From a virus (taxonomy: Duplodnaviria; Heunggongvirae; Uroviricota; Caudoviricetes), in the IMG/VR virus record IMGVR_UViG_3300049482_000044, positions 1 through 64,000 of that record: a stretch of DNA of 64,000 bases; one strand, written 5' to 3'. The position numbers and the translations under genes were made by a program. Positions within the stretch are counted from its first letter, which is position 1. The number at the start of each line of letters is the position of its first letter. The notes under the pieces are model-generated. The model was not told where the DNA came from. It ran no database searches and saw only the letters and a list, made by a program, of their open reading frames with translations. Below, one piece after another: positions 18,835-58,438 of the stretch.

Positions 18835-19382
18835 TGGCCGCTGAATTAGAACTGGCCGATAAGTTCGAGACCATGAACAGGGTTGTCGAACAGAAACTCA
18901 CTGGGCAGAACCTGACACAGATCGCTCGCAACCTCGGCATAACTCGTGCCGAGGTAAACGAGTATTACGAGATGTTCAAGGTTATTGCCTCTGATTCAAG
19001 TAATATGAAAGCCCGCGCCCGTGAGGCGATGGCGACCGTTGATATTCACTATGATCGACTGATCCACGCCCTGTATAAGATCGTAGACGAAGCAGACGAT
19101 TGGCAGTCGATGGAGGGCGTCGATGCCAAGATGCTTAGCCAAAAGACTGGTGCTATTAGCAAGATAGCCGATCTAGAACTAAAGCGCGTTCAAATGCTAA
19201 AGGACGCGGGGCTGCTAGACGACCAGGAACTAGCACAGCAGGTTATCGACACAGAAAAGAAGCATGAGGTGCTTATCGGTATCTTGAAGGATGTTACGCA
19301 GCACTGTGATCGGTGTAGCAAGAAAGTAGCAGAGCGCCTGCGCGAAGTGAACAACGAGGCTGTGGCAGTAAAGTTTGTTTGA
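18834..19382 (+). CDS. putative terminase small subunit / HTH DNA-binding protein
   Basis: Immediately upstream of and overlapping terminase large; HTH-like LTQIARNLGITRAEVNEYYEMF. Confidence 0.35.
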   Translation: MAAELELADKFETMNRVVEQKLTGQNLTQIARNLGITRAEVNEYYEMFKVIASDSSNMKARAREAMATVDIHYDRLIHALYKIVDEADDWQSMEGVDAKMLSQKTGAISKIADLELKRVQMLKDAGLLDDQELAQQVIDTEKKHEVLIGILKDVTQHCDRCSKKVAERLREVNNEAVAVKFV

Positions 19383-22239
19383 GGATTTTCTAGACGTACT
19401 CAGCGGTGACGTGTTCGAGGAAATACCTGTCACCGTAGAAGAATTCGTCACGTCGCGGGACTTTGTCCGTCCAGGTGCCCCAGCATTCCCATCTCTGTCC
19501 GTGGATCAGATGCGTATGCTCAAAGCAATGACGCAGATTCTAGGCAGAGACACACTTATTCAGGTGTGGGGAGAGGGCATCGGGAAATCTCGGTGGGAAG
19601 AAACCTTCAACGAAATAATCCTCCAACTAGGTAAGGGTTGCCACGCTCCATACACCCCCGTATTTGATCCAAGTACCGGTAAGTGGAGCCGACTAGACTC
19701 ATTTGTAGGCGACGGGCTTGTTGCTTCTAGCGATGGGGCTAATCACTATGCAACAGAATCTTTTCGGGAGGGCTTCGGACAGATGGTGCGAGTCAAGACA
19801 TCTCTCGGACTTTCAGAGGATGTCTATGTCGGACATAAGTATCTTTCTCTTTCTAGGTCTGACTTCTACCACAGGTATAGAGGGATAGACCCGTCATTTG
19901 TATCGGTAGATAACCTCTTCGTGGGCGATAGGATTGCTGTCGCTGCTGGGTTTGACGTTTCCTCCCCGACCTATATGCAACCAGAAGTAGCCGAACTGAT
20001 AGGATTCTGGTTAGGCGATGGAATGCTTCCAACCGATGCAAACCCAATTATCAATATGGATTTCTGTTCAGACGAGTCTGAAAGTATCGCTAGGTATGAA
20101 GAACTATGTCTTATTATCGGAGACAGCCCCACAAAGACTATTCACCCAAACAAGAGTCTGACATTCTTTCGGCATGGAAGAAACTCCAAGGCGGTCCAGA
20201 TTGCTAAGGACAATGGTCTGTGGGGGATGCGTAGCCATACAAAATTAGTTCCCGACTGCGTACTTTCTTCAGATAACAAAACCATAGCGCTAGTTGTTGA
20301 AAAACTTTGGCAGACGGATGGCTGTGTCTATGCAAAAAACGGACTTACCGCAGAATATGTCTCTGTCTCTGAGCAATTGGCTACGGATGTACAGAGGATG
20401 CTACTACGCCTTGGTGTCCCATCAGCATTAAGATCTAGGACTCCAAAATCTAATTTTGCTAATGCCTCGCTAGCCTGGTACGTGACCGTTAGCAGTCAGG
20501 AGTGTGTGGGTGCATTTTTTGACAAAATCAAACTACTCGACCATAAGCGCCCCGAACTGACAGAAAAAACCGGGCGCACCTACAAGAGACTCCAAGACAA
20601 CTATTATTATGATCGAATCGCTTCTATAGAGCCAATTGGCGACGGGGAGTTTTGGACAAAAACTGTTCCAGATACTGGTAATTATGTTGGTAATGGAATG
20701 ATCTCTGCTAATTCCGGTAAGGACTTCATATCTACAGTCGCCGTAGCATATATAGTCTACGTACTGCTTTGTATGAAAGACCCGGCCAGTTACTATGGCA
20801 AGCCACAGGGCGACGCCATCGACATTCTTAATATTGCTATTAACGCCACCCAGGCAAAGAACGTTTTCTTCAAGGGGTTTAAGCAGCGCATCGACAACAA
20901 CCCCTGGTTCGATGGTAAATATGACGCCAAGGCAGATAACATAGAATTTGACAAGCATATTACTGTTCACTCTGGTCACTCAGAACGTGAGTCATGGGAG
21001 GGCTATAACCTGCTTGTTGTGATCCTTGACGAGATCTCCGGTTTTGCATTGGAGTCGGCTTCTGGGAATCTGAATGCCAAGACATCGGAACAGATCTATG
21101 ATATGTACTCGGCCTCTGTTGTGTCACGATTTCCTGACTACGGAAAGACAATTCTTCTATCATTCCCGCGCTACAAAGACGACTTCATCCAGCAGCGTTA
21201 TGCTGCGGTCGTGGCATCAAAGAACACCGTTATTCACACCGAGCGTCTTATAGTCAACCCCGACCTACCAGATGATTACGAGGGCAACTTCGTTGAATTC
21301 GAGTGGGAGGAAGATCATATTATTAGTTACCGAGAGCCTCGGGTATTTGCGCTAAAGAGGCCTTCCTGGATTATTAATCCTACCAAAAAGGTTACCGACT
21401 ATACCGGTCAGTTCTTCAAGAATATGACTGACGCGCTTATGCGTTTCGCCTGTATGCCTCCTGAGTCTATCGACGGTATGTTCAAGGACTCCGAGCGCGT
21501 TAATAATGCTTTCAGGCAGCCCCTGGCTATCGAAGAGGACGGCACGATAAACCATACATTGGTGGCGGACCCAGAGAAGATTTACTATATCCACGTCGAC
21601 CTTGCCCAGAAGATCGACCGATGTGCGGTATCTATGGCCCACGTAGACTCCTGGACTGCCGTTCGATACAAGGGTATTTCAGATAAGGTCGAGCCGGTGG
21701 TAGTCGTAGACTTTATTAGATACTGGACTCCTAGCGCAAGCAAGACGGTGGACTTTGCCGAGGTCCGTGACTTTATCGTGTCTATGTCTAAAAAGGGATT
21801 TAATATAGGCCTAGTAACATTTGACCGCTGGAACTCCGTCGAAATGATGGAGTATCTTGACGGAATGGGTCTGAAAACAGATAGACTCTCAGTGGCGAAG
21901 CCTCACTACACAGACCTTTTGATGGTTGTAAACGAGGGTCGTTGTCACGGTCCCGATATTGAACTGGTGCGTAAAGAACTAAAGCAGTTGCGAATCATCA
22001 AGGATAAGGTTGACCACCCCCGCTCCGGAAGCAAGGACTTGGCTGACGCCACCTGCGGTGCCGTGTTTAATGCCATCAGCCTCACACCTAAGGATAACTG
22101 GGGCGAGGTTGAGATTCAGACATATGACTCGTTGCGAGCATCCCGCCCCGTCGCGGTCGAGCCCCCAGAGGCCCAGCGCGCGACCGGACCCATACCAGAT
22201 GAACTTGCAGCATACCTTGACGGCATCACTGTTTTATAG
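19375..22239 (+). CDS. terL: terminase large subunit, intein-containing
   Basis: Exteins splice to ...QLGKG|SGKDF... forming a Walker A P-loop; Walker B LVVILDEISGF; C-terminal RNaseH-like nuclease region; 954 aa precursor. Confidence 0.8.
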   Translation: MFEDFLDVLSGDVFEEIPVTVEEFVTSRDFVRPGAPAFPSLSVDQMRMLKAMTQILGRDTLIQVWGEGIGKSRWEETFNEIILQLGKGCHAPYTPVFDPSTGKWSRLDSFVGDGLVASSDGANHYATESFREGFGQMVRVKTSLGLSEDVYVGHKYLSLSRSDFYHRYRGIDPSFVSVDNLFVGDRIAVAAGFDVSSPTYMQPEVAELIGFWLGDGMLPTDANPIINMDFCSDESESIARYEELCLIIGDSPTKTIHPNKSLTFFRHGRNSKAVQIAKDNGLWGMRSHTKLVPDCVLSSDNKTIALVVEKLWQTDGCVYAKNGLTAEYVSVSEQLATDVQRMLLRLGVPSALRSRTPKSNFANASLAWYVTVSSQECVGAFFDKIKLLDHKRPELTEKTGRTYKRLQDNYYYDRIASIEPIGDGEFWTKTVPDTGNYVGNGMISANSGKDFISTVAVAYIVYVLLCMKDPASYYGKPQGDAIDILNIAINATQAKNVFFKGFKQRIDNNPWFDGKYDAKADNIEFDKHITVHSGHSERESWEGYNLLVVILDEISGFALESASGNLNAKTSEQIYDMYSASVVSRFPDYGKTILLSFPRYKDDFIQQRYAAVVASKNTVIHTERLIVNPDLPDDYEGNFVEFEWEEDHIISYREPRVFALKRPSWIINPTKKVTDYTGQFFKNMTDALMRFACMPPESIDGMFKDSERVNNAFRQPLAIEEDGTINHTLVADPEKIYYIHVDLAQKIDRCAVSMAHVDSWTAVRYKGISDKVEPVVVVDFIRYWTPSASKTVDFAEVRDFIVSMSKKGFNIGLVTFDRWNSVEMMEYLDGMGLKTDRLSVAKPHYTDLLMVVNEGRCHGPDIELVRKELKQLRIIKDKVDHPRSGSKDLADATCGAVFNAISLTPKDNWGEVEIQTYDSLRASRPVAVEPPEAQRATGPIPDELAAYLDGITVL
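19639..20712 (+). mobile_element. intein (LAGLIDADG homing-endonuclease type) inside the terminase P-loop
   Basis: Begins at a Cys (CHAPYTPV...), has two LAGLIDADG-like blocks (LIGFWLGDGML; LVVEKLWQTDGCVY), ends ...GMISAN followed by Ser (+1 nucleophile). Confidence 0.7.
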
Positions 22240-26695: not shown

Positions 26696-27157
26696 ATGAT
26701 CCGGCTTATCCCTGTCTTTTTCATAATCTTCCCGCTCCTTCTCATACCATATTTTTTCTGGAAGGATAGCAGGCAGAAGCCCGCCCTGATGATGTCAGTC
26801 GATGACCGTATTCTCGCACTAGAAAAAGAGTGCGAAATCCGTGATGAGGCGGGGGAACTGATACATAAGCCAGTTTGGGATGGATCTGCATGGGTAGATA
26901 ACTTGCTCGACTCAGCCAGGGTGCCTAGGCGGCAAGCGCCAGAAATTCCCACTCGGCTTACTCCAATGATGTCGATGCAGAAGCAGGCGCTAGACGAGTA
27001 CGAATTCCTTAACGTACAGGACTGGACTGGAAATGTGGTCCAGCAGTACGGATATAAGCATCTGCCCGATGGTCGAGTAATTGGGCATCGTCTAGACGTA
27101 TCCATGCCAGAATATGACACTTTTAGGAGGGGTTCAGGTGACTACGGTCCTCGTTGA
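26696..27157 (+). CDS. membrane-anchored hypothetical protein
   Basis: N-terminal TM helix LIPVFFIIFPLLLIPYFFW. Confidence 0.35.
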   Translation: MIRLIPVFFIIFPLLLIPYFFWKDSRQKPALMMSVDDRILALEKECEIRDEAGELIHKPVWDGSAWVDNLLDSARVPRRQAPEIPTRLTPMMSMQKQALDEYEFLNVQDWTGNVVQQYGYKHLPDGRVIGHRLDVSMPEYDTFRRGSGDYGPR

Positions 27158-27397
27158 TATTGGCTCTATGGTACGGGTATCGTATGCTGTTCAAGGACTC
27201 CCCGCCGGGATTACTTTTACGGTGGTCGATAAGGACGCCTGCCATTGGATTCTCGTCCCGAACATAACCTGGGACGGGCCTAGACTGAGAATACCTTTTA
27301 ACTGTGTCAGACCATTCGATGTTGAACAAAATTATCGGGACTGATACAATAGACTGAGCGGCAGCGTCGTTGTCATGAACATTCTGCCGCTCTCTAC

Positions 27398-27471
27398 CCT
27401 CGTAATGGCTCTGCCTTCTAAGCAAGTAGCGCATAACGGATGATGCTGGTTCGAATCCAGTCGAGGGTGCC
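27398..27471 (+). pseudogene. tRNA-like remnant (intact acceptor and T-arm, degenerate core)
   Basis: ACCCTCG...GCTGG-TTCGAAT-CCAGT-CGAGGGT gives a perfect acceptor and T-arm, but no canonical D or anticodon arms can be folded. Confidence 0.3.
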
Positions 27472-27571
27472 GGGGCAATTAAACGAACGATACCACCTAG
27501 GGGCGAGCGCTCAAACCTGGATAGGTCACACGCCAACGGATTGCGCGCATTAATAATCACACCCCGACCAA

Positions 27572-27638
27572 GCCGCTAATAAGGATATCGCTCGTCCCTC
27601 CGAAGGACTTGCTTCGAGTTCGACTCTCGATAGTGGCA
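27572..27638 (+). tRNA. D-arm-truncated tRNA-like gene, anticodon CCG (Arg-type)
   Basis: 67 nt: acceptor GCCGCTA/TAGTGGC (G4-U69), anticodon arm GTCC-CTCCGAA-GGAC, T-arm TCGAG-TTCGACT-CTCGA; only about 14 nt where 19 nt of D-arm are expected. Confidence 0.4.
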
Positions 27639-27751
27639 CAATGACTGCTAGACGCTTAACTACTATCTGGTGCAGGGTGATAGACTTGGGTAGCGCCCGA
27701 GAAACTAAAACAAGTCAGATCAGTCAGGGACCGGGGTACCACGGTCCACAC

Positions 27752-27818
27752 GCCGCTAGTAAGGAACAATCCAGGCCTCCTAAGCCAGGTATTTCGGGTC
27801 CGATTCCCGATAGTGGCA
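27752..27818 (+). tRNA. D-arm-truncated tRNA-like gene, anticodon CCU (Arg-type); paralog of 27572..27638
   Basis: 67 nt: same acceptor GCCGCTA/TAGTGGC, anticodon loop CTCCTAA, T-arm TCGGG-TCCGATT-CCCGA; shares the GTAAGGA connector with its paralog. Confidence 0.4.
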
Positions 27819-27819
27819 C

Positions 27820-28167
27820 ATGACTAATGAATACGATAGGATAAAGCACTTAGCCAGATCGCTATTAGATTACTGGTCGAATAGACAGTATCCTGATCGT
27901 AAGATCTATATTGAATGGAATCAAAAAACGGGTGTCTTTGAGGTAACCGTATACTTTTTGGTTGCAGGGCATAACCACCGTATGGATTTCGAAGTTCCAA
28001 TTGACTCCGACATTGAAAAGTATCCGATTGCCATGCTAAGAGTATGGGATAGCAAGATATCTGAAGAAACATCCTGGGTATCATCAGGGGCCGGTCCTTG
28101 GAATGATGAGAGGTACCGTAGGATCGCAGACAAACTGAATAAGGAGTTGCTCGATGGTTTATCTTGA
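27820..28167 (+). CDS. hypothetical protein
   Basis: 115-aa ORF starting right after the second tRNA-like gene. Confidence 0.4.
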   Translation: MTNEYDRIKHLARSLLDYWSNRQYPDRKIYIEWNQKTGVFEVTVYFLVAGHNHRMDFEVPIDSDIEKYPIAMLRVWDSKISEETSWVSSGAGPWNDERYRRIADKLNKELLDGLS

Positions 28168-29375: not shown

Positions 29376-30299
29376 ATGGGAACTCTTATTTTTATGAGCC
29401 TCGTCGCCGTACTTGGACTTGTTGGACTTCTCCTTCTCGTTCGCCCGCCCAAGTTCGAGGTCGATGATGCCGGGGATCGCTACACAGAAGCCTCGACTAA
29501 GTCGTTTACCAAGTGGGTTAGAGTATCAGGAGCAGTTGTTCTGGCCCTGTCTCTGCTTATTATCATCCCGTCCAGCATTAAGTCTATCGACGCTACCGAT
29601 GTAGGTGTCCCGATTACTCTCGGGCAGCCTGGTGACCCTCTCGGCCCCGGCCCGCACCTGACGCTCCCCTGGACTACCGTGTCCAGCCTTGACGTCAAGA
29701 CTCAGGTATTGAACATGGACGACGACAACGAAATCAAGACTGTCACGTCCGACCGAGTCCAGACGCCTGTTGACGTCTCGGTTTACTTTTCCGTAGACAA
29801 GGCTCGCGCCGCTACGCTACTGTTGACGGTGGGCGAGGATTACGTAGACAAGATCGTCCGTCCTCTCACCCGCTCCACTGTCTATGACAAGGGAAGCACT
29901 TATTCCGCTGACAACATTCAGACTCAGCGGGATGCCTATGAGGATTCCGTAAAGGCTGCGCTGCTCCCCATCCTTGCTGCTCGTGGTATTATTCTGGAAA
30001 AGATCGAGATTCGTAAGATCCAGTTGCCCGACGCTATTTTACAGAACGCTCAGGCAAAGATCAACTCTGAGGAAATCCAGAAGCGTACTAAGATCGACGC
30101 TGAAACCAAGGTGATCGAAGCAACGGCGCAGGCTAAGGCCAATGAGATCCTTGCTGACTCGATCAAGCAGAATAAGGATGTCTGTCAACTGCTGCTCGTC
30201 CAGGGTCTTTCTACTGGAAAGATCACCGGCCCGCTGTACGTTAACCCCTGCGGGACCGACTCTGGAACCAGTCCGCTCTTGACGAAGTCTGTCGGCTAA
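29376..30299 (+). CDS. SPFH/band-7 (stomatin/prohibitin-like) membrane protein
   Basis: N-terminal TM; central SPFH-like region followed by a long coiled-coil alpha-helical tail (EIRKIQLPDAILQNAQAKINSEEIQKRTKIDAETKVIEATAQAKANEIL). Confidence 0.55.
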   Translation: MGTLIFMSLVAVLGLVGLLLLVRPPKFEVDDAGDRYTEASTKSFTKWVRVSGAVVLALSLLIIIPSSIKSIDATDVGVPITLGQPGDPLGPGPHLTLPWTTVSSLDVKTQVLNMDDDNEIKTVTSDRVQTPVDVSVYFSVDKARAATLLLTVGEDYVDKIVRPLTRSTVYDKGSTYSADNIQTQRDAYEDSVKAALLPILAARGIILEKIEIRKIQLPDAILQNAQAKINSEEIQKRTKIDAETKVIEATAQAKANEILADSIKQNKDVCQLLLVQGLSTGKITGPLYVNPCGTDSGTSPLLTKSVG

Positions 30300-32105: not shown

Positions 32106-32437
32106 GGGGGCGAAAGGTAATCGATTTCGTTTCGGAAGTATGAAGTGGCAGCGGGCGCGGTTACCCTAAGTAACCAACAACAAAATAAACGACGAAACAA
32201 ACCAGATTGTTGCAGCAGCAATGCTCAACATCGACGCCGAGTACGAGGCACTTTGTGCCGAGTACGCTCTCATCACTGTATGAGTGGCCGGGTGTCAGCG
32301 ACCTAGGAACAGAACGCTGAAAACCGCCTGAGAGGGCACCCTGTAATGCCAGCAACAAAGAATAACCGGCAGGATGCATCGCTGTATCTGTGACATATAA
32401 TGAACGAAAGACGCGGGTTCGAATCCCGCCGCCTCCA
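32106..32437 (+). ncRNA. ssrA: tmRNA (ssrA-like), about 332 nt
   Basis: 5-prime GGGGGCG pairs with 3-prime CGCCTCC-A; 3-prime end GACGCGGGTTCGAATCCCGCCGCCTCCACC is near-identical in form to bacterial tmRNA TLD; internal AAACGACGAAAC resume-region homolog; tag ORF ends ...AEYALITV-TGA at 32281. Confidence 0.65.
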
Positions 32438-32451
32438 CCTAAGGAGCAATA

Positions 32452-34006: not shown

Positions 34007-34720
34007 ATGACCCCAAGAAAAACTTCCATCTGGTGGGATGAGCAGGCCGTCTTAAGCGCCTGGGATGGTGCTAAATCTCAAAAACAGATATTGCAAAGAC
34101 TGGGGCAGAAAATGGGCTCAGGAAACTATGCTAATTTAAGAGCCTTCGCGGAGAGGTATGGGCTAGAGATACCAATTTTCCATTCGGACCTTTCATATCT
34201 AAGAGAATATAGAAAAATATCTGACGATGAGTATTATTCTAAAGGAATAAAAAGGGGTGGGTCCAACCTTCGAATTAGATTGCTTCGTGACGGTCATCTA
34301 CAAGATAAATGCTATGCATGTGGTCTCGGTAATGTATGGAATGATTTACCCATCGTCATGACAGTTGAGCATATAGATGGTGATAACTTAAACAACGCAC
34401 TTGATAATCTTACCTTTCTGTGTCACAACTGTCACAGTCAGACTGTTACATTTTCTGGAAGAAACGTAAAAAATCGACTGGCTAAGTCAATATACTTCTG
34501 CGGCGACGGTTGTGGTAAGAGAGTCACGAGCAGTGGTAATTTTTGTGGGGCCTGCCGAGGGGCAAAGAGAAGAAAAATCAACTGGCCGGACCTTGACGAA
34601 CTAGACTCCCTTGTGGTAGAGTATGGTTATAGCGGTGCTGGCAAGAAACTGGGAGTCTCAGACTCTTCTGTTAGAAAAGCCCTTAATCGTTTAAAGAAAG
34701 AACATACCGCCGTCGCTTAA
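34007..34720 (+). CDS. HNH homing endonuclease with C-terminal DNA-binding region
   Basis: CYACGLGNVWNDLPIVMTVEHIDGDNLNNALDNLTFLCHNCH HNH core; C-terminal HTH-like region. Confidence 0.6.
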   Translation: MTPRKTSIWWDEQAVLSAWDGAKSQKQILQRLGQKMGSGNYANLRAFAERYGLEIPIFHSDLSYLREYRKISDDEYYSKGIKRGGSNLRIRLLRDGHLQDKCYACGLGNVWNDLPIVMTVEHIDGDNLNNALDNLTFLCHNCHSQTVTFSGRNVKNRLAKSIYFCGDGCGKRVTSSGNFCGACRGAKRRKINWPDLDELDSLVVEYGYSGAGKKLGVSDSSVRKALNRLKKEHTAVA

Positions 34721-34779
34721 TGGACATAGCACTTCGCTACGAACGAAGAATAATGCAGGTTCGATCCCTGCCGGTGGTA
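34706..34779 (+). tRNA. tRNA-Arg (ACG)
   Basis: Acceptor ACCGCCG/CGGTGGT, D-loop AATGG, anticodon stem CTTCG/CGAAG with loop CTACGAA, T-arm GCAGG-TTCGATC-CCTGC; overlaps the last 15 nt of the HNH gene. Confidence 0.6.
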
Positions 34780-34801
34780 CTCCTACTAACGAAAGGCCGT
34801 C

Positions 34802-36266: not shown

Positions 36267-36337
36267 GGGGGGCGCAGTGTAATGGTTGCACTACTCTTTT
36301 GCAAGGAGTCAGAGGGGTTCGAGTCCCACGCTTTCCA
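36267..36337 (+). tRNA. tRNA-Ala-like (UGC), imperfect stems, CCA encoded
   Basis: Anticodon stem ACTCT/GGAGT with loop TTTGCAA; G3-U70 present; T-stem only 3-4 bp, so possibly degenerate. Confidence 0.35.
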
Positions 36338-36782: not shown

Positions 36783-36862
36783 CGTGTAATAACGCTCTGA
36801 ATCAGGTGATTAATCTACTCTCATAAGGTAGGTAGTCTGGATCGTTACCAGGCTGAGCGACT

Positions 36863-39439: not shown

Positions 39440-39637
39440 CCAGTGAGAAATGTGGGCTGCGATCCACCCTATACGCCAGTTGGTAATAGGTCGTCCAAAA
39501 TGCAGGACACTCGCTAATGTTTGGGCCGCAAGCATTGAAGCGATGCAATGGGCTTTTACCCCATGGACCACGGGGCAGTACCGTGGCGGTCTACGTCTAG
39601 AGCAGCACGTCCGTTTTAAATATAACTGAATAAGTAT

Positions 39638-39730
39638 GGCAGGACAAGCCGAATTTTGGACGACGGCACTCGCCTTGAAAGCGAGCGAGGACTGATAATC
39701 CCTTGGGGGTTCGAAACCACCCTCCTGCCG
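39638..39730 (+). tRNA. tRNA-Ser-like (UGA), class II, atypical T-stem
   Basis: Acceptor GGCAGGA/TCCTGCC, D GCCG-(12-nt loop)-CGGC, anticodon stem CTCGC/GCGAG with loop CTTGAAA, long variable arm; T-loop TTCGAAA has an imperfect stem. Confidence 0.4.
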
Positions 39731-40173: not shown

Positions 40174-40248
40174 GCAGACGGTAGGTTGGATATCTAGTCG
40201 AGTCTCATAAACTCGAAATAAACGCGGTTCGATTCTCGCGGTCCTGCA
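40174..40248 (+). pseudogene. tRNA-like, anticodon CAU (Met/Ile2-type), degenerate acceptor
   Basis: Perfect anticodon arm CGAGT-CTCATAA-ACTCG, but the acceptor halves (GCAGACG vs GTCCTGC) and T-stem pair poorly. Confidence 0.3.
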
Positions 40249-40667
40249 ACCAGTTGAAAACTAAATAGCAATAAAACAGGCATGGCTGATATGTTGGGGT
40301 AACCCAATGAAAGGCGGGTGACAACCGCCACCAGAAATGGTAATCCATGCAATCCGAAACTGCAACGAGTTCCATACCAGGGGACCGGGGCATCGTAAGT
40401 CAGGCGGGAAACGGCAAACGTGCTTATCCCAGGTTGTCACGCAGACAACCAGCCACAAACGACGAGCGATGCTGGCAGGAAGGAAGGATCATAAGTCCGA
40501 GGCGTCAACCTAGGGCGGGGTCCATGAAGCCGAAAAAGTGGTCTGGCGAGGTCATAAGTATCGACGGAGATTGAGAGTACCTGACAAGGAAATCATATCG
40601 GAGGAGTGAAGCATTCTGTAGGCCAAAATCCTACGGACCTTCTAGGGAAGCGCTTCTTCTGTCAAAA

Positions 40668-40739
40668 GCAACTATAGGTCAATGGTAGACCGATTGTATT
40701 TGGAACAATATGTTGCAGGTTCGAATCCTGCTGGTTATT
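40668..40739 (+). tRNA. tRNA-like, anticodon UUG (Gln-type), weak acceptor
   Basis: D GGTC-AATGGTA-GACC and T-arm GCAGG-TTCGAAT-CCTGC are canonical; acceptor GCAACTA/TGGTTAT has a mismatch. Confidence 0.4.
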
Positions 40740-41038
40740 TCAAAAGCGAAAGACTTCCCTTGTTCTTGTTCGAAAGCGCCTTAATACTTGGCCCTCCGGG
40801 GAACCAAGTTCATCCCGAGCCGCAAGCGGAGGATGGTTCATAGCCAGTAATGCAGTCAAGAGGCTTGCTACCTCTAGACGAAGTGAAAACTGTGGAGTGG
40901 AACAGGAATATAAAGAGTGGTATGCTATACATACCAGGCGTGATAGTTAGCATGGGGACATGCTGGAAACGATGGGAATCAATAATCCGTCTAGAGACTA
41001 TCAAGGCAAGCGAGTATTCTCATCGCCCGCCAACTTTA

Positions 41039-57731: not shown

Positions 57732-57796
57732 ATGCTCCTTGTAGTTGGTAGTACCACTACTACCGCCTCAGAGGGCGGCAGTCAAGGCTTTTCGGA

Positions 57797-57868
57797 GGGG
57801 AATGAGGGAATCGAACCCTGAAATGTACGCTTTGCAGGCGTCATGCAGACCATCTACAACAAACCCCA
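57797..57868 (-). tRNA. tRNA-like, anticodon GCA (Cys-type), imperfect acceptor
   Basis: Minus-strand T-arm CAGGG-TTCGATT-CCCTC and anticodon loop CTGCAAA; acceptor GGGGTTT/ATTCCCC has two U-U mismatches. Confidence 0.3.
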
Positions 57869-58256: not shown

Positions 58257-58322
58257 TTAACCTTCTAGCGCCGCCCGCCCTAGTAGCGTGGTCACAGGGG
58301 ATACGATCCCTTTTCGAAGGAG

Positions 58323-58392
58323 TGTCAGTAGTAGGAATCGAACCCAACTCGGTAGTGGTTTACAGCCACGCCTCGTGCCACACGTTACTGAC
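58323..58392 (-). tRNA. tRNA-Tyr-like (GUA), short (70 nt)
   Basis: Acceptor GTCAGTA/TACTGAC is perfect, anticodon stem GTGG/CCAC with loop CTGTAAA, T-arm TTGGG-TTCGATT-CCTAC; variable region shorter than expected for class II. Confidence 0.4.
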
Positions 58393-58438
58393 ATTCTTGC
58401 CGGGGTGAGGAGATTATCACCCATCCCCGGCAGAGTCT

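Follow-up and report, generated by a model that had tools for sequence, protein, structure and literature searches.

Transfer RNAs (tRNAs) without a D arm are known from animal mitochondria. In the mammalian mitochondrial tRNA-Ser(AGY) and the nematode mitochondrial tRNA-Ser(UCU), the D hairpin is replaced by a short single-stranded connector, and such tRNAs are functional despite the loss (PMC7609411, PMC9427863). D-armless forms were reported from mitochondria only in a 2020 review of non-canonical tRNAs (PMC7609411). An artificial counterpart, the D-armless tRNA-His mini HisT (Edelmann et al. 2024, PMC11551756), works with the bacterial translation machinery; it was made by removal of bases 11-25, has a 4-nucleotide (nt) connector and a total length of 62 nt, and needs a pnp mutation in vivo. 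The present analysis concerns a stretch of 64,000 nt of phage DNA (positions 1 to 64,000 of the IMG/VR virus record IMGVR_UViG_3300049482_000044, Caudoviricetes), referred to below as the window, and two 67-nt genes on its plus strand without a D hairpin, namely the tRNA-Arg(CCG)-like gene c1 (27572..27638) and the tRNA-Arg(CCU)-like gene c2 (27752..27818). They are read here as functional arginine tRNA genes whose core has been rewired, not as wrecks, with a probability of roughly two in three. No description of tRNA genes without a D hairpin in phages or bacteria was found in the literature searched, the coverage of which was incomplete.

The mitochondrial D-armless tRNAs are the closest known systems. 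They share with c1 and c2 the connector in place of the D hairpin and the length of about 60-67 nt, and c1 and c2 are recognised by the mitochondrial mode of ARAGORN. In contrast to them, c1 and c2 occur in a bacterial phage and are arginine tRNAs, not serine ones; their connector has 13-14 nt with a GGA motif (about 5 nt in the mitochondrial forms); and the bacterial T-loop consensus TTCGAnT is kept, whereas both the T and the D loops are eroded in the mitochondrial forms. Nor is there any sign of a genome-wide erosion of tRNAs, with 23 canonical tRNAs in the same window. c1 and c2 thus resemble the mitochondrial tRNAs in outline and are not members of that class, being non-organellar, arginine-type and equipped with bacterial T-loop and D-loop motifs. 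Unlike mini HisT, they are natural, retain an equivalent of the D loop and belong to a conserved family. With the canonical tRNA-Arg (RF00005) they share the acceptor stem, the anticodon arm, the T arm, a candidate A20-type motif, C35, the discriminator A and a place in phage tRNA gene clusters; they differ from it in the absence of the 10-13/22-25 hairpin, in a score below the family cutoff and in a length of 66-67 nt instead of 73-76 nt. The YrlA-type Y RNAs, which are bound by Ro60/Rsr, also have a tRNA-like T arm and an acceptor-like stem. The stem to which Ro binds is made up of the two ends of a Y RNA, 5' and 3', and Y RNAs lack an anticodon loop that presents a sense anticodon. Unlike them, c1 and c2 end in an acceptor stem with a discriminator, and the only Rfam family recovered for them is tRNA.

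Fold and relatives of the c-type genes

c1 is composed of an acceptor stem (27572-78/27631-37, GCCGCTA/TAGTGGC with a G4.U69 pair), a 14-nt connector (27579-92, A-TAAGGA-TATCGCT, GGA at 27583-85), an anticodon stem (27593-97/27605-09, (C)GTCC/GGAC(T)) with the loop CTCCGAA (27598-27604) and the anticodon CCG (27600-27602), a variable region (27610-13, TGCT), a T arm (T stem 27614-18/27626-30, T loop 27619-25, TCGAG-TTCGACT-CTCGA) and the discriminator A (27638). c2 has the identical acceptor stem (27752-58/27811-17), a 13-nt connector (27759-71, G-TAAGGA-ACAATC, GGA at 27763-65), an anticodon stem with an A.A mismatch (27772-76/27784-88, CAGGC/GCCAG), the loop CTCCTAA (27777-83) with the anticodon CCT (27779-27781), the variable region GTATT (27789-93), a T arm (T stem 27794-98/27806-10, T loop TCCGATT at 27799-27805, TCGGG-TCCGATT-CCCGA) and the discriminator A (27818). 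The two genes are identical at 43/67 positions in an ungapped comparison and have the acceptor stem and the 3' flank CAC(A)ATGACT in common. The positions given in the initial annotation for both genes proved exact on checking of the sequence, and the identical acceptor stems with G4.U69, the good T arms, the clear 7-nt anticodon loops and the 13-14 nt that begin with (A/G)TAAGGA in place of the D arm were all found as it had described them. Its view of c1 and c2 as paralogous tRNA-like genes with arginine anticodons also held, and the D hairpin is missing from the homologues as well. The claimed loss of the D arm was borne out as far as the hairpin is concerned; the genes are not simply armless, TAAGGA being taken here as the equivalent of a D loop.

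Nothing was reported at c1, c2 or the neighbouring element e3 (see below) by standard ARAGORN in the bacterial, pseudogene-tolerant and intron modes or by Rfam at the gathering threshold. With RF00005 (curated gathering cutoff, 29 bits), c2 was aligned at the same boundaries with a truncated D region and scored 21.2 bits, e3 scored 27.3 bits, and c1 was not reported even at E<=10. A permissive cmscan of 27300-27900 returned tRNA and two chance-level matches only, with no YrlA or other Rfam family. By using the mitochondrial mode of ARAGORN, both c1 and c2 were called as D-reduced tRNAs; since about 10 of the 45 calls of this mode in the window lie inside open reading frames (ORFs) and are probable false hits, such calls are weak when taken alone. 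It is the comparison with homologues, not the detectors, by which c1 and c2 are set apart from chance.

A blastn search of 50,697 phage records with c1 and c2 yielded chance-level matches only. When IMG/VR was scanned for an exact pattern based on the acceptor common to both genes, nothing was found, and a looser pattern gave one random match and one ordinary tRNA-Arg fragment of attachment-site (att) type on contig L016. The relatives were reached through the SPFH/Band-7 protein encoded near c1 and c2 (29376-30299), homologues of which (53-71% identical) are found on metagenomic contigs; these contigs were then examined for tRNA genes. c-type copies, as c1, c2 and their relatives are called here, occur at the same locus, upstream of the SPFH protein, on five related actinophage contigs (L017-L021), and similar genes occur on two more. 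The order is e3-type UCU, c-type CCG and c-type CCU on L017, and canonical UCU, c-type CCG and c-type CCU on L020; L021 has c-type CCG and CCU, L019 has c-type CCU, and L018 has e3-type UCU, e3-type CCU and c-type CCG. On L027 a 66-nt c-type ACG gene stands beside a canonical CCU gene, and the IMG/VR contig L177 has a c-type CCG gene. The orthologues of c1 are accordingly those on L017, L018, L020, L021 and L177, and those of c2 are on L017, L019, L020 and L021. The more distant relatives L025 and L026 have canonical tRNA-Arg genes instead. The c-type architecture is kept where the neighbouring SPFH protein is only 63-71% identical.

Two of the genes met in this survey are worth recording separately. 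In the c-type tRNA-Arg(ACG) gene of L027 (9894-9959), the GG of the D loop has degenerated (AACAGA), as has the T-loop consensus (TGCAATT), and this gene may be one step closer to losing the elbow contact in the manner of mitochondrial tRNAs. An odd tRNA-Arg(cct)-like gene on the IMG/VR contig L178 (682-754) has a 4-bp D stem with a 4-nt loop (GGTA-AGGA-TGCC) which directly abuts the acceptor stem, positions 8-9 being absent.

For the determination of covariation, a hand alignment of ten c-type sequences and a model-based alignment of 11 distinct sequences were used instead of a MAFFT alignment of all c-type sequences, which did not keep the stems in register. A covariance model (R1), derived from seven sequences that included neither c1 nor its CCG orthologues, found c1 end to end with 40.7 bits (E about 1e-8 in the window); the c1 orthologues scored 54-64 bits, and canonical tRNAs reached at most about 37 bits, mostly as partial matches. 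In the hand alignment, the acceptor is paired in 70/70 cells with compensatory changes at 5/7 positions, and the anticodon and T stems covary. In the model-based alignment, 96.8% of the cells of the three helices are paired (acceptor 100%, T stem 100%, anticodon stem 89%), as against 66.4 +/- 2.5% in shuffles and 36-48% with slid partners. Both-side (compensatory) changes were recorded in 16/17 pairs, including 7/7 in the acceptor, with 57 compensatory cells and no stem decay, and none of 500 shuffles reached the observed values. The model-based alignment leans towards the structure of R1 because it was fitted to the model; the hand alignment agrees with it. A 7-bp acceptor, a 5-bp anticodon stem, a 7-nt loop with U33, a 5-bp T stem and a 7-nt T loop are therefore all present and covarying. 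No conserved D hairpin (3-4 bp, positions 10-25) was found in the 11 homologues, which have only 13-14 nt between the acceptor and anticodon stems. The minimum-energy fold of c1 has the same three-way junction, the anticodon arms in such folds comprising 4+2 pairs in c1, 9 in the L020 orthologue and 5+3 in the L017 orthologue. On this comparative evidence, c1 and c2 are confirmed as real, conserved tRNA-Arg-like genes, the stems of which appear to be under selection.

The connector starts with G (A in c1) followed by TAAGGA, the variants being CATGGA, GAAGGA and, in L027, AACAGA. TAAGGA is best read as the D-loop equivalent with G18, G19 and A20, because the D loop of the normal tRNA-Arg(CCT) fragment in L016 is ATATAAGGAT. 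GGA is present in 10/11 c-type members, and the discriminator A, C35 and G/U36 are present in 11/11; the anticodon is an arginine one (CCG, CCU or ACG) in every member. The determinants of the bacterial arginyl-tRNA synthetase (ArgRS) are A20 (the main one), C35, U/G36 and A/G73, none of the listed ones lying in the D stem (PMC9976931). The A after GG, which occurs in 10/11 c-type members, may occupy the position 20 pocket. In most members, pairing of the connector's 3' end with the variable region (4-5 nt) lengthens the anticodon stem by 1-4 pairs; in the hand alignment, 26-44 pairs in 8/10 and 25-45 in 6/10 sequences, with several pair types. There is moderate support for the view that this added helix is a partial replacement of the D stem, with the variable-region strand in place of positions 10-13. 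It would occupy the site where the D stem usually stacks.

The e3-type family of arginine tRNAs

The third tRNA-like element, e3, is a 74-nt non-canonical tRNA-Arg(UCU) (27396..27469, plus strand), identified by its RF00005 score, homologues and covariation. It had been placed at 27398..27471 in the initial annotation, two nt off, and described as a scrambled tRNA remnant; what the homologues point to instead is a conserved tRNA-Arg(UCU) family with a covarying fold of its own. Its parts are the acceptor (27396-402/27462-68), U8 and A9 (27403-04), a long-range D stem (5' strand TGGC at 27406-09, 3' strand GCGCA at 27429-33), the anticodon arm (27410-26, anticodon at 27417-19), a D-loop-like TAACGGA (27434-40), a TGAT linker (27441-44), the T arm (27445-61) and the discriminator G (27469). 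In its alignment to RF00005 there are 7 nt instead of a D arm and an insertion of 15 nt in the variable region.

Copies of e3 with 81-85% identity were found within tRNA arrays in 26 deposited Streptomyces and Rhodococcus phage records, where they bear the label "tRNA-OTHER", have no annotation or lie under a small hypothetical ORF. In NiceHouse (L003) a "hypothetical protein" coding sequence (1454-1594) covers the e3-type gene and is probably a mis-annotation, and in Gilson (L004) another one (1570-1728) directly abuts it. After one metagenome scan and two IMG/VR scans the e3-type set contained about 36 distinct sequences, the anticodons of which are all arginine ones (UCU 28, CCU 3, ACG 3, UCG 2), the anticodon having been left free in the main scan. 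The 5' half consists of the acceptor, U8 A9, one base, a 3-4 nt strand, the anticodon arm and 2-11 nt; the 3' half consists of the complementary 3-4 nt strand, TAACGGA, 4-7 nt, the T arm and the acceptor.

In the long-range helix of the e3-type genes, the first two positions are standard pairs in 36/36 sequences, with four pair types each. Outside the TGGC subfamily (19 sequences), 54/57 cells pair, compared with 29.4 +/- 3.4 (maximum 42) in 2000 permutations. In a MAFFT alignment of 29 e3-type sequences, the first pair is UA in 16, CG in 11 and GC in 2, and the second is GC in 23, AU in 3 and CG in 3. A straight TGGC/GCGC register for the e3 stem was given up on the evidence of the diverse homologues and replaced by the pairing of positions 11-13 with the 3 nt before TAACGGA; in the subfamily to which the e3 of the window belongs (TGGC with G(C/T)GCA), the helix continues beyond a bulged G. 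Because the two short strands that flank the anticodon arm pair and covary, it is a well-supported reading of the alignments that the D stem of the e3-type genes forms around the anticodon arm, with the D-loop equivalent (GGA) at the position of the variable region.

Like the c-type genes, the e3-type ones (in Mildred21, Comrade, Gilson and others) are restricted to arginine, phage-borne and without a D hairpin, retain GGA and occupy the same slots. The D-loop equivalent lies 3' of the anticodon arm in the e3-type (TAACGGA) and 5' of it in c1 and c2; the partner strand is formed by the bases before TAACGGA, in a 3-4 bp helix with the 5' connector, in the former and by the 4-5 nt variable region in the latter. 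The e3-type topology seems to be further from anything described than the c-type one. The canonical tRNA-Arg(UCU) of L020 shares the acceptor stem, the T arm and the ATGAT linker with the e3-type genes, from which an evolutionary connection of the two forms follows. The e3-specific pattern was found on 30 IMG/VR contigs, many of them 90-400 kb long, and among 185,579 prokaryotic species (one genome each) on only two contigs, both from bins of metagenome-assembled genomes; by this distribution the family is essentially phage-borne. The only UCU tRNA of Mildred21 is its e3-type gene.

Decoding and the alternatives to it

As working tRNA genes, c1 and c2 would be transcribed together with the neighbouring UCU gene e3, and the transcript would be trimmed by RNase P and a 3' nuclease; the CCA end, which is not encoded in c1 and c2, would for that reason be added after trimming. 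The host ArgRS would charge them through A20, C35, G36/U36 and A73. They would then read CGG and AGG, with e3 reading AGA/AGG and the canonical ACG tRNA reading CGU/C/A. The sole standard arginine tRNA of the window is a canonical tRNA-Arg(ACG) (34706..34780, plus strand; ARAGORN; RF00005, 55.3 bits), and its anticodon is the one missing from c1, c2 and e3. The canonical ACG together with the odd UCU, CCG and CCU gives a four-anticodon set for all six arginine codons; by post-hoc arithmetic, three triplets drawn at random would coincide with the missing three arginine anticodons with a probability of about 2e-5. AGA, AGG and CGG together make up 36% of the 552 arginine codons in 35 ORFs of the window. 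The forms also interchange by slot: the UCU slot holds a canonical gene in L020 and an e3-type gene in the window and L017, and the CCU slot mostly holds a c-type gene and in L018 an e3-type one. The complementary anticodon set and this interchange favour ordinary decoding over the decoy or regulatory role named as an alternative in the initial annotation. Rewiring of the D domain is probably possible in arginine tRNAs because recognition by the bacterial ArgRS depends on one D-loop base plus the anticodon, with none of the listed determinants in the D stem. An engineered D-armless tRNA-His was accepted by the unadapted histidyl-tRNA synthetase, EF-Tu and ribosome of E. coli (PMC11551756).

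Several observations weigh against c1 and c2 as working tRNAs. c1 is the weakest member of its family (40.7 bits with R1 as against 54-64 bits for its orthologues), has a C27.U43 mismatch in the anticodon stem and extends that stem towards the connector and variable region by only 2 bp. Position 55 of the T loop is C instead of U in c2 and in the CCU gene of L017. The added helix between connector and variable region pairs in 62.5% of the cells, and bulges are needed in some members. A Pfam scan of 45 ORFs of the window revealed neither an ArgRS nor an enzyme for CCA addition or tRNA modification. The engineered tRNA-His worked in vivo in E. coli only after mutation of polynucleotide phosphorylase (PNPase; PMC11551756), which makes the stability of c1 and c2 in the host an issue.

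Of the alternatives, ordinary cloverleafs with misread boundaries, an intron or a hidden D arm are the least probable and can be given hardly any weight: standard ARAGORN does call shifted 68-73 nt tRNA-Arg genes at the orthologues of L017, L020, L021 and L177, but these calls need mismatched acceptor stems and 2-bp D stems and were rejected in favour of the adopted boundaries, which pair in 100% of the acceptor cells. RF00005 aligns c2 at the same boundaries, the ARAGORN intron mode finds nothing, and in a search for a standard cloverleaf with other boundaries none was found, covarying pairs being obtained at the 66-67 nt boundaries only. A D stem within the connector, in which GGA pairs with UCC of the anticodon stem/loop, was likewise rejected as unconserved and in competition with covarying stems. 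It is very improbable, too, that c1 and c2 are duplicated tRNA-Arg genes which, after a loss of 5-6 nt from the D arm, drift as decaying pseudogenes. The mismatch and the low model score of c1 would fit such decay, as would the canonical arginine tRNAs in place of c-type genes in L025 and L026; however, the relatives are not near-identical strains, the architecture persisting at an SPFH identity of only 63-71%, and the 57 compensatory cells and the fully paired acceptor without stem decay are not those of drifting genes. Fragments or pseudogenes of att-site type were rejected because both acceptor strands are present with compensatory changes throughout. A true att-type fragment is that in L016, which, unlike c1 and c2, consists of the 3' part only and adjoins the end of a recombinase-like ORF.

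The other two alternatives accept the genes as intact and differ as to their use. As decoys or sponges, c1 and c2 would titrate a host factor (a nuclease, ArgRS, a modification enzyme or Ro/PNPase) as uncharged tRNA mimics, without taking part in decoding. Their tRNA-like form below the detection cutoffs and the Ro60-like genes in related phages speak for this, but the exact complementarity of the anticodon set, the conserved U33, 7-nt anticodon loops and intact acceptors with discriminator A, and the swap with a canonical tRNA in the same slot are hard to explain by it, and no YrlA or other Rfam family was matched; we regard it as unlikely. Evasion of defence is a tentative suggestion of somewhat greater weight, which would add a selective cause to working tRNAs, not replace them: the tRNAs would be charged and would decode, and the odd core would have been selected to escape a tRNA-Arg nuclease or another tRNA-targeting defence, or a phage-made nuclease by which the host is shut off. 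Actinobacterial phages would, on this suggestion, possibly keep a private class of arginine tRNAs with the D domain rebuilt in two topologies, charged yet invisible to tRNA-Arg nucleases or quality control, so that the phage translates while the host tRNA-Arg is attacked. Both odd architectures are restricted to arginine tRNAs, and the evasion of anticodon nucleases and of retron effectors by phage tRNAs is documented (PMC10264068, PMC11555353). In e3-type carriers, Mildred21 among them, there are genes for an RNA ligase, a polynucleotide kinase, a tRNA nucleotidyltransferase and a Ro-like protein, which suggests a conflict over tRNA integrity. Against it, neither the window nor any host has yielded an Arg-specific nuclease, the same phage retains a canonical tRNA-Arg(ACG), and the documented cases act through changes in the anticodon loop and not through rewiring of the core (PMC10264068).

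Setting in the window and implications

The window is part of a tRNA-rich phage genome, in which 23 tRNA genes, all canonical, were called by standard ARAGORN, together with a transfer-messenger RNA (tmRNA; 32106-32440) and a GOLLD RNA (40599-41026) identified by ARAGORN and Rfam. Its ORFs include DNA polymerase III alpha, DnaB, primase, RecA and ClpP. The 50,697 deposited phage genomes searched included no near relative of the window; one protein encoded in it is also on record from a 115-kb JGI contig and a Logan contig. The WhiB genes present in relatives of the phage indicate actinobacterial hosts. The three tRNA-like elements lie on the plus strand in a gap without called genes (27157-27820), and for the ORF just downstream of c2 (27820-28167) no homologue except itself was found. 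A promoter-like site (TTGAAC-17-TACAAT, TG-extended; 27322..27350, plus strand), 46 nt upstream of e3, was detected by a consensus scan which gave 3 sites against 1.4 expected from shuffles and is weak evidence; it is a possible start of an e3-c1-c2 transcript. A hairpin (GGACCGG-GGTACCA-CGGTCC; 27728..27747, plus strand) ends 5 nt before c2. By a pattern search across loci, such GC-rich hairpins (GGRCCGG...CGGYCC) were found in spacers between arginine tRNA genes in the window (27728-27747), L017 (3726), L020 (7534) and L021 (1237); processing and termination are possible roles.

Several other tRNA-like genes of the window depart from the consensus. A second kind of tRNA lacking the D hairpin may be present at 40181-40248, with the anticodon CAT (Met/Ile2), a 10-nt connector with GGA, a 6-bp anticodon stem and a U.U mismatch in the acceptor (R1, 18.4 bits full-length), for which no clear counterpart was found among the tRNA-Met genes compared in four loci. 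Genes missed by standard ARAGORN and the Rfam cutoffs are Ala(tgc) at 36268-36336 (28.4 bits), Glu(ctc) at 36793-36861, Lys(ttt) at 39523-39594, Ser(tga) at 39638-39729 (best match to the tRNA-Sec model, 33 bits), and, on the minus strand, Cys(gca) at 57796-57868 and Tyr(gta) at 58322-58393. The phage of the window thus seems to carry many off-consensus tRNAs. A tRNA-Gln(ttg) gene (40667-40741) is embedded in the GOLLD RNA (RF02032, 201.6 bits), and several HNH and Endonuclease VII genes are interspersed in the tRNA clusters. The tag of the window tmRNA ends with ...EYEALCAEYALITV, and similar tags in L020 and L021 end with ...EYEALCAEYAL. An ORF of 954 amino acids (19375-22239) with LAGLIDADG and intein-splicing domains is probably an intein-containing gene. 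With regard to Y RNAs, a 129-nt "tRNA-OTHER" of Mildred21 (L179; 36559-36687) with an acceptor-like stem, a T arm and a long insert looks YrlA-type, and TROVE/Ro60 genes were found in L025, Comrade and Gilson.

If the c-type and e3-type genes are functional, natural bacterial translation would tolerate tRNAs without a D hairpin in at least two topologies, and the arginine system would show which features of the core are needed by ArgRS, EF-Tu, RNase P, the CCA enzyme and the ribosome. Since e3-type genes are present in cultured Streptomyces and Rhodococcus phages (Mildred21, Comrade, Gilson and NiceHouse), this question is directly testable. Compact, reshaped tRNAs are also of interest as orthogonal parts for synthetic biology. 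Because odd tRNA-Arg genes are missed or mislabelled by the standard finders, arginine tRNAs are undercounted in phage tRNA inventories and in analyses of codon compensation.

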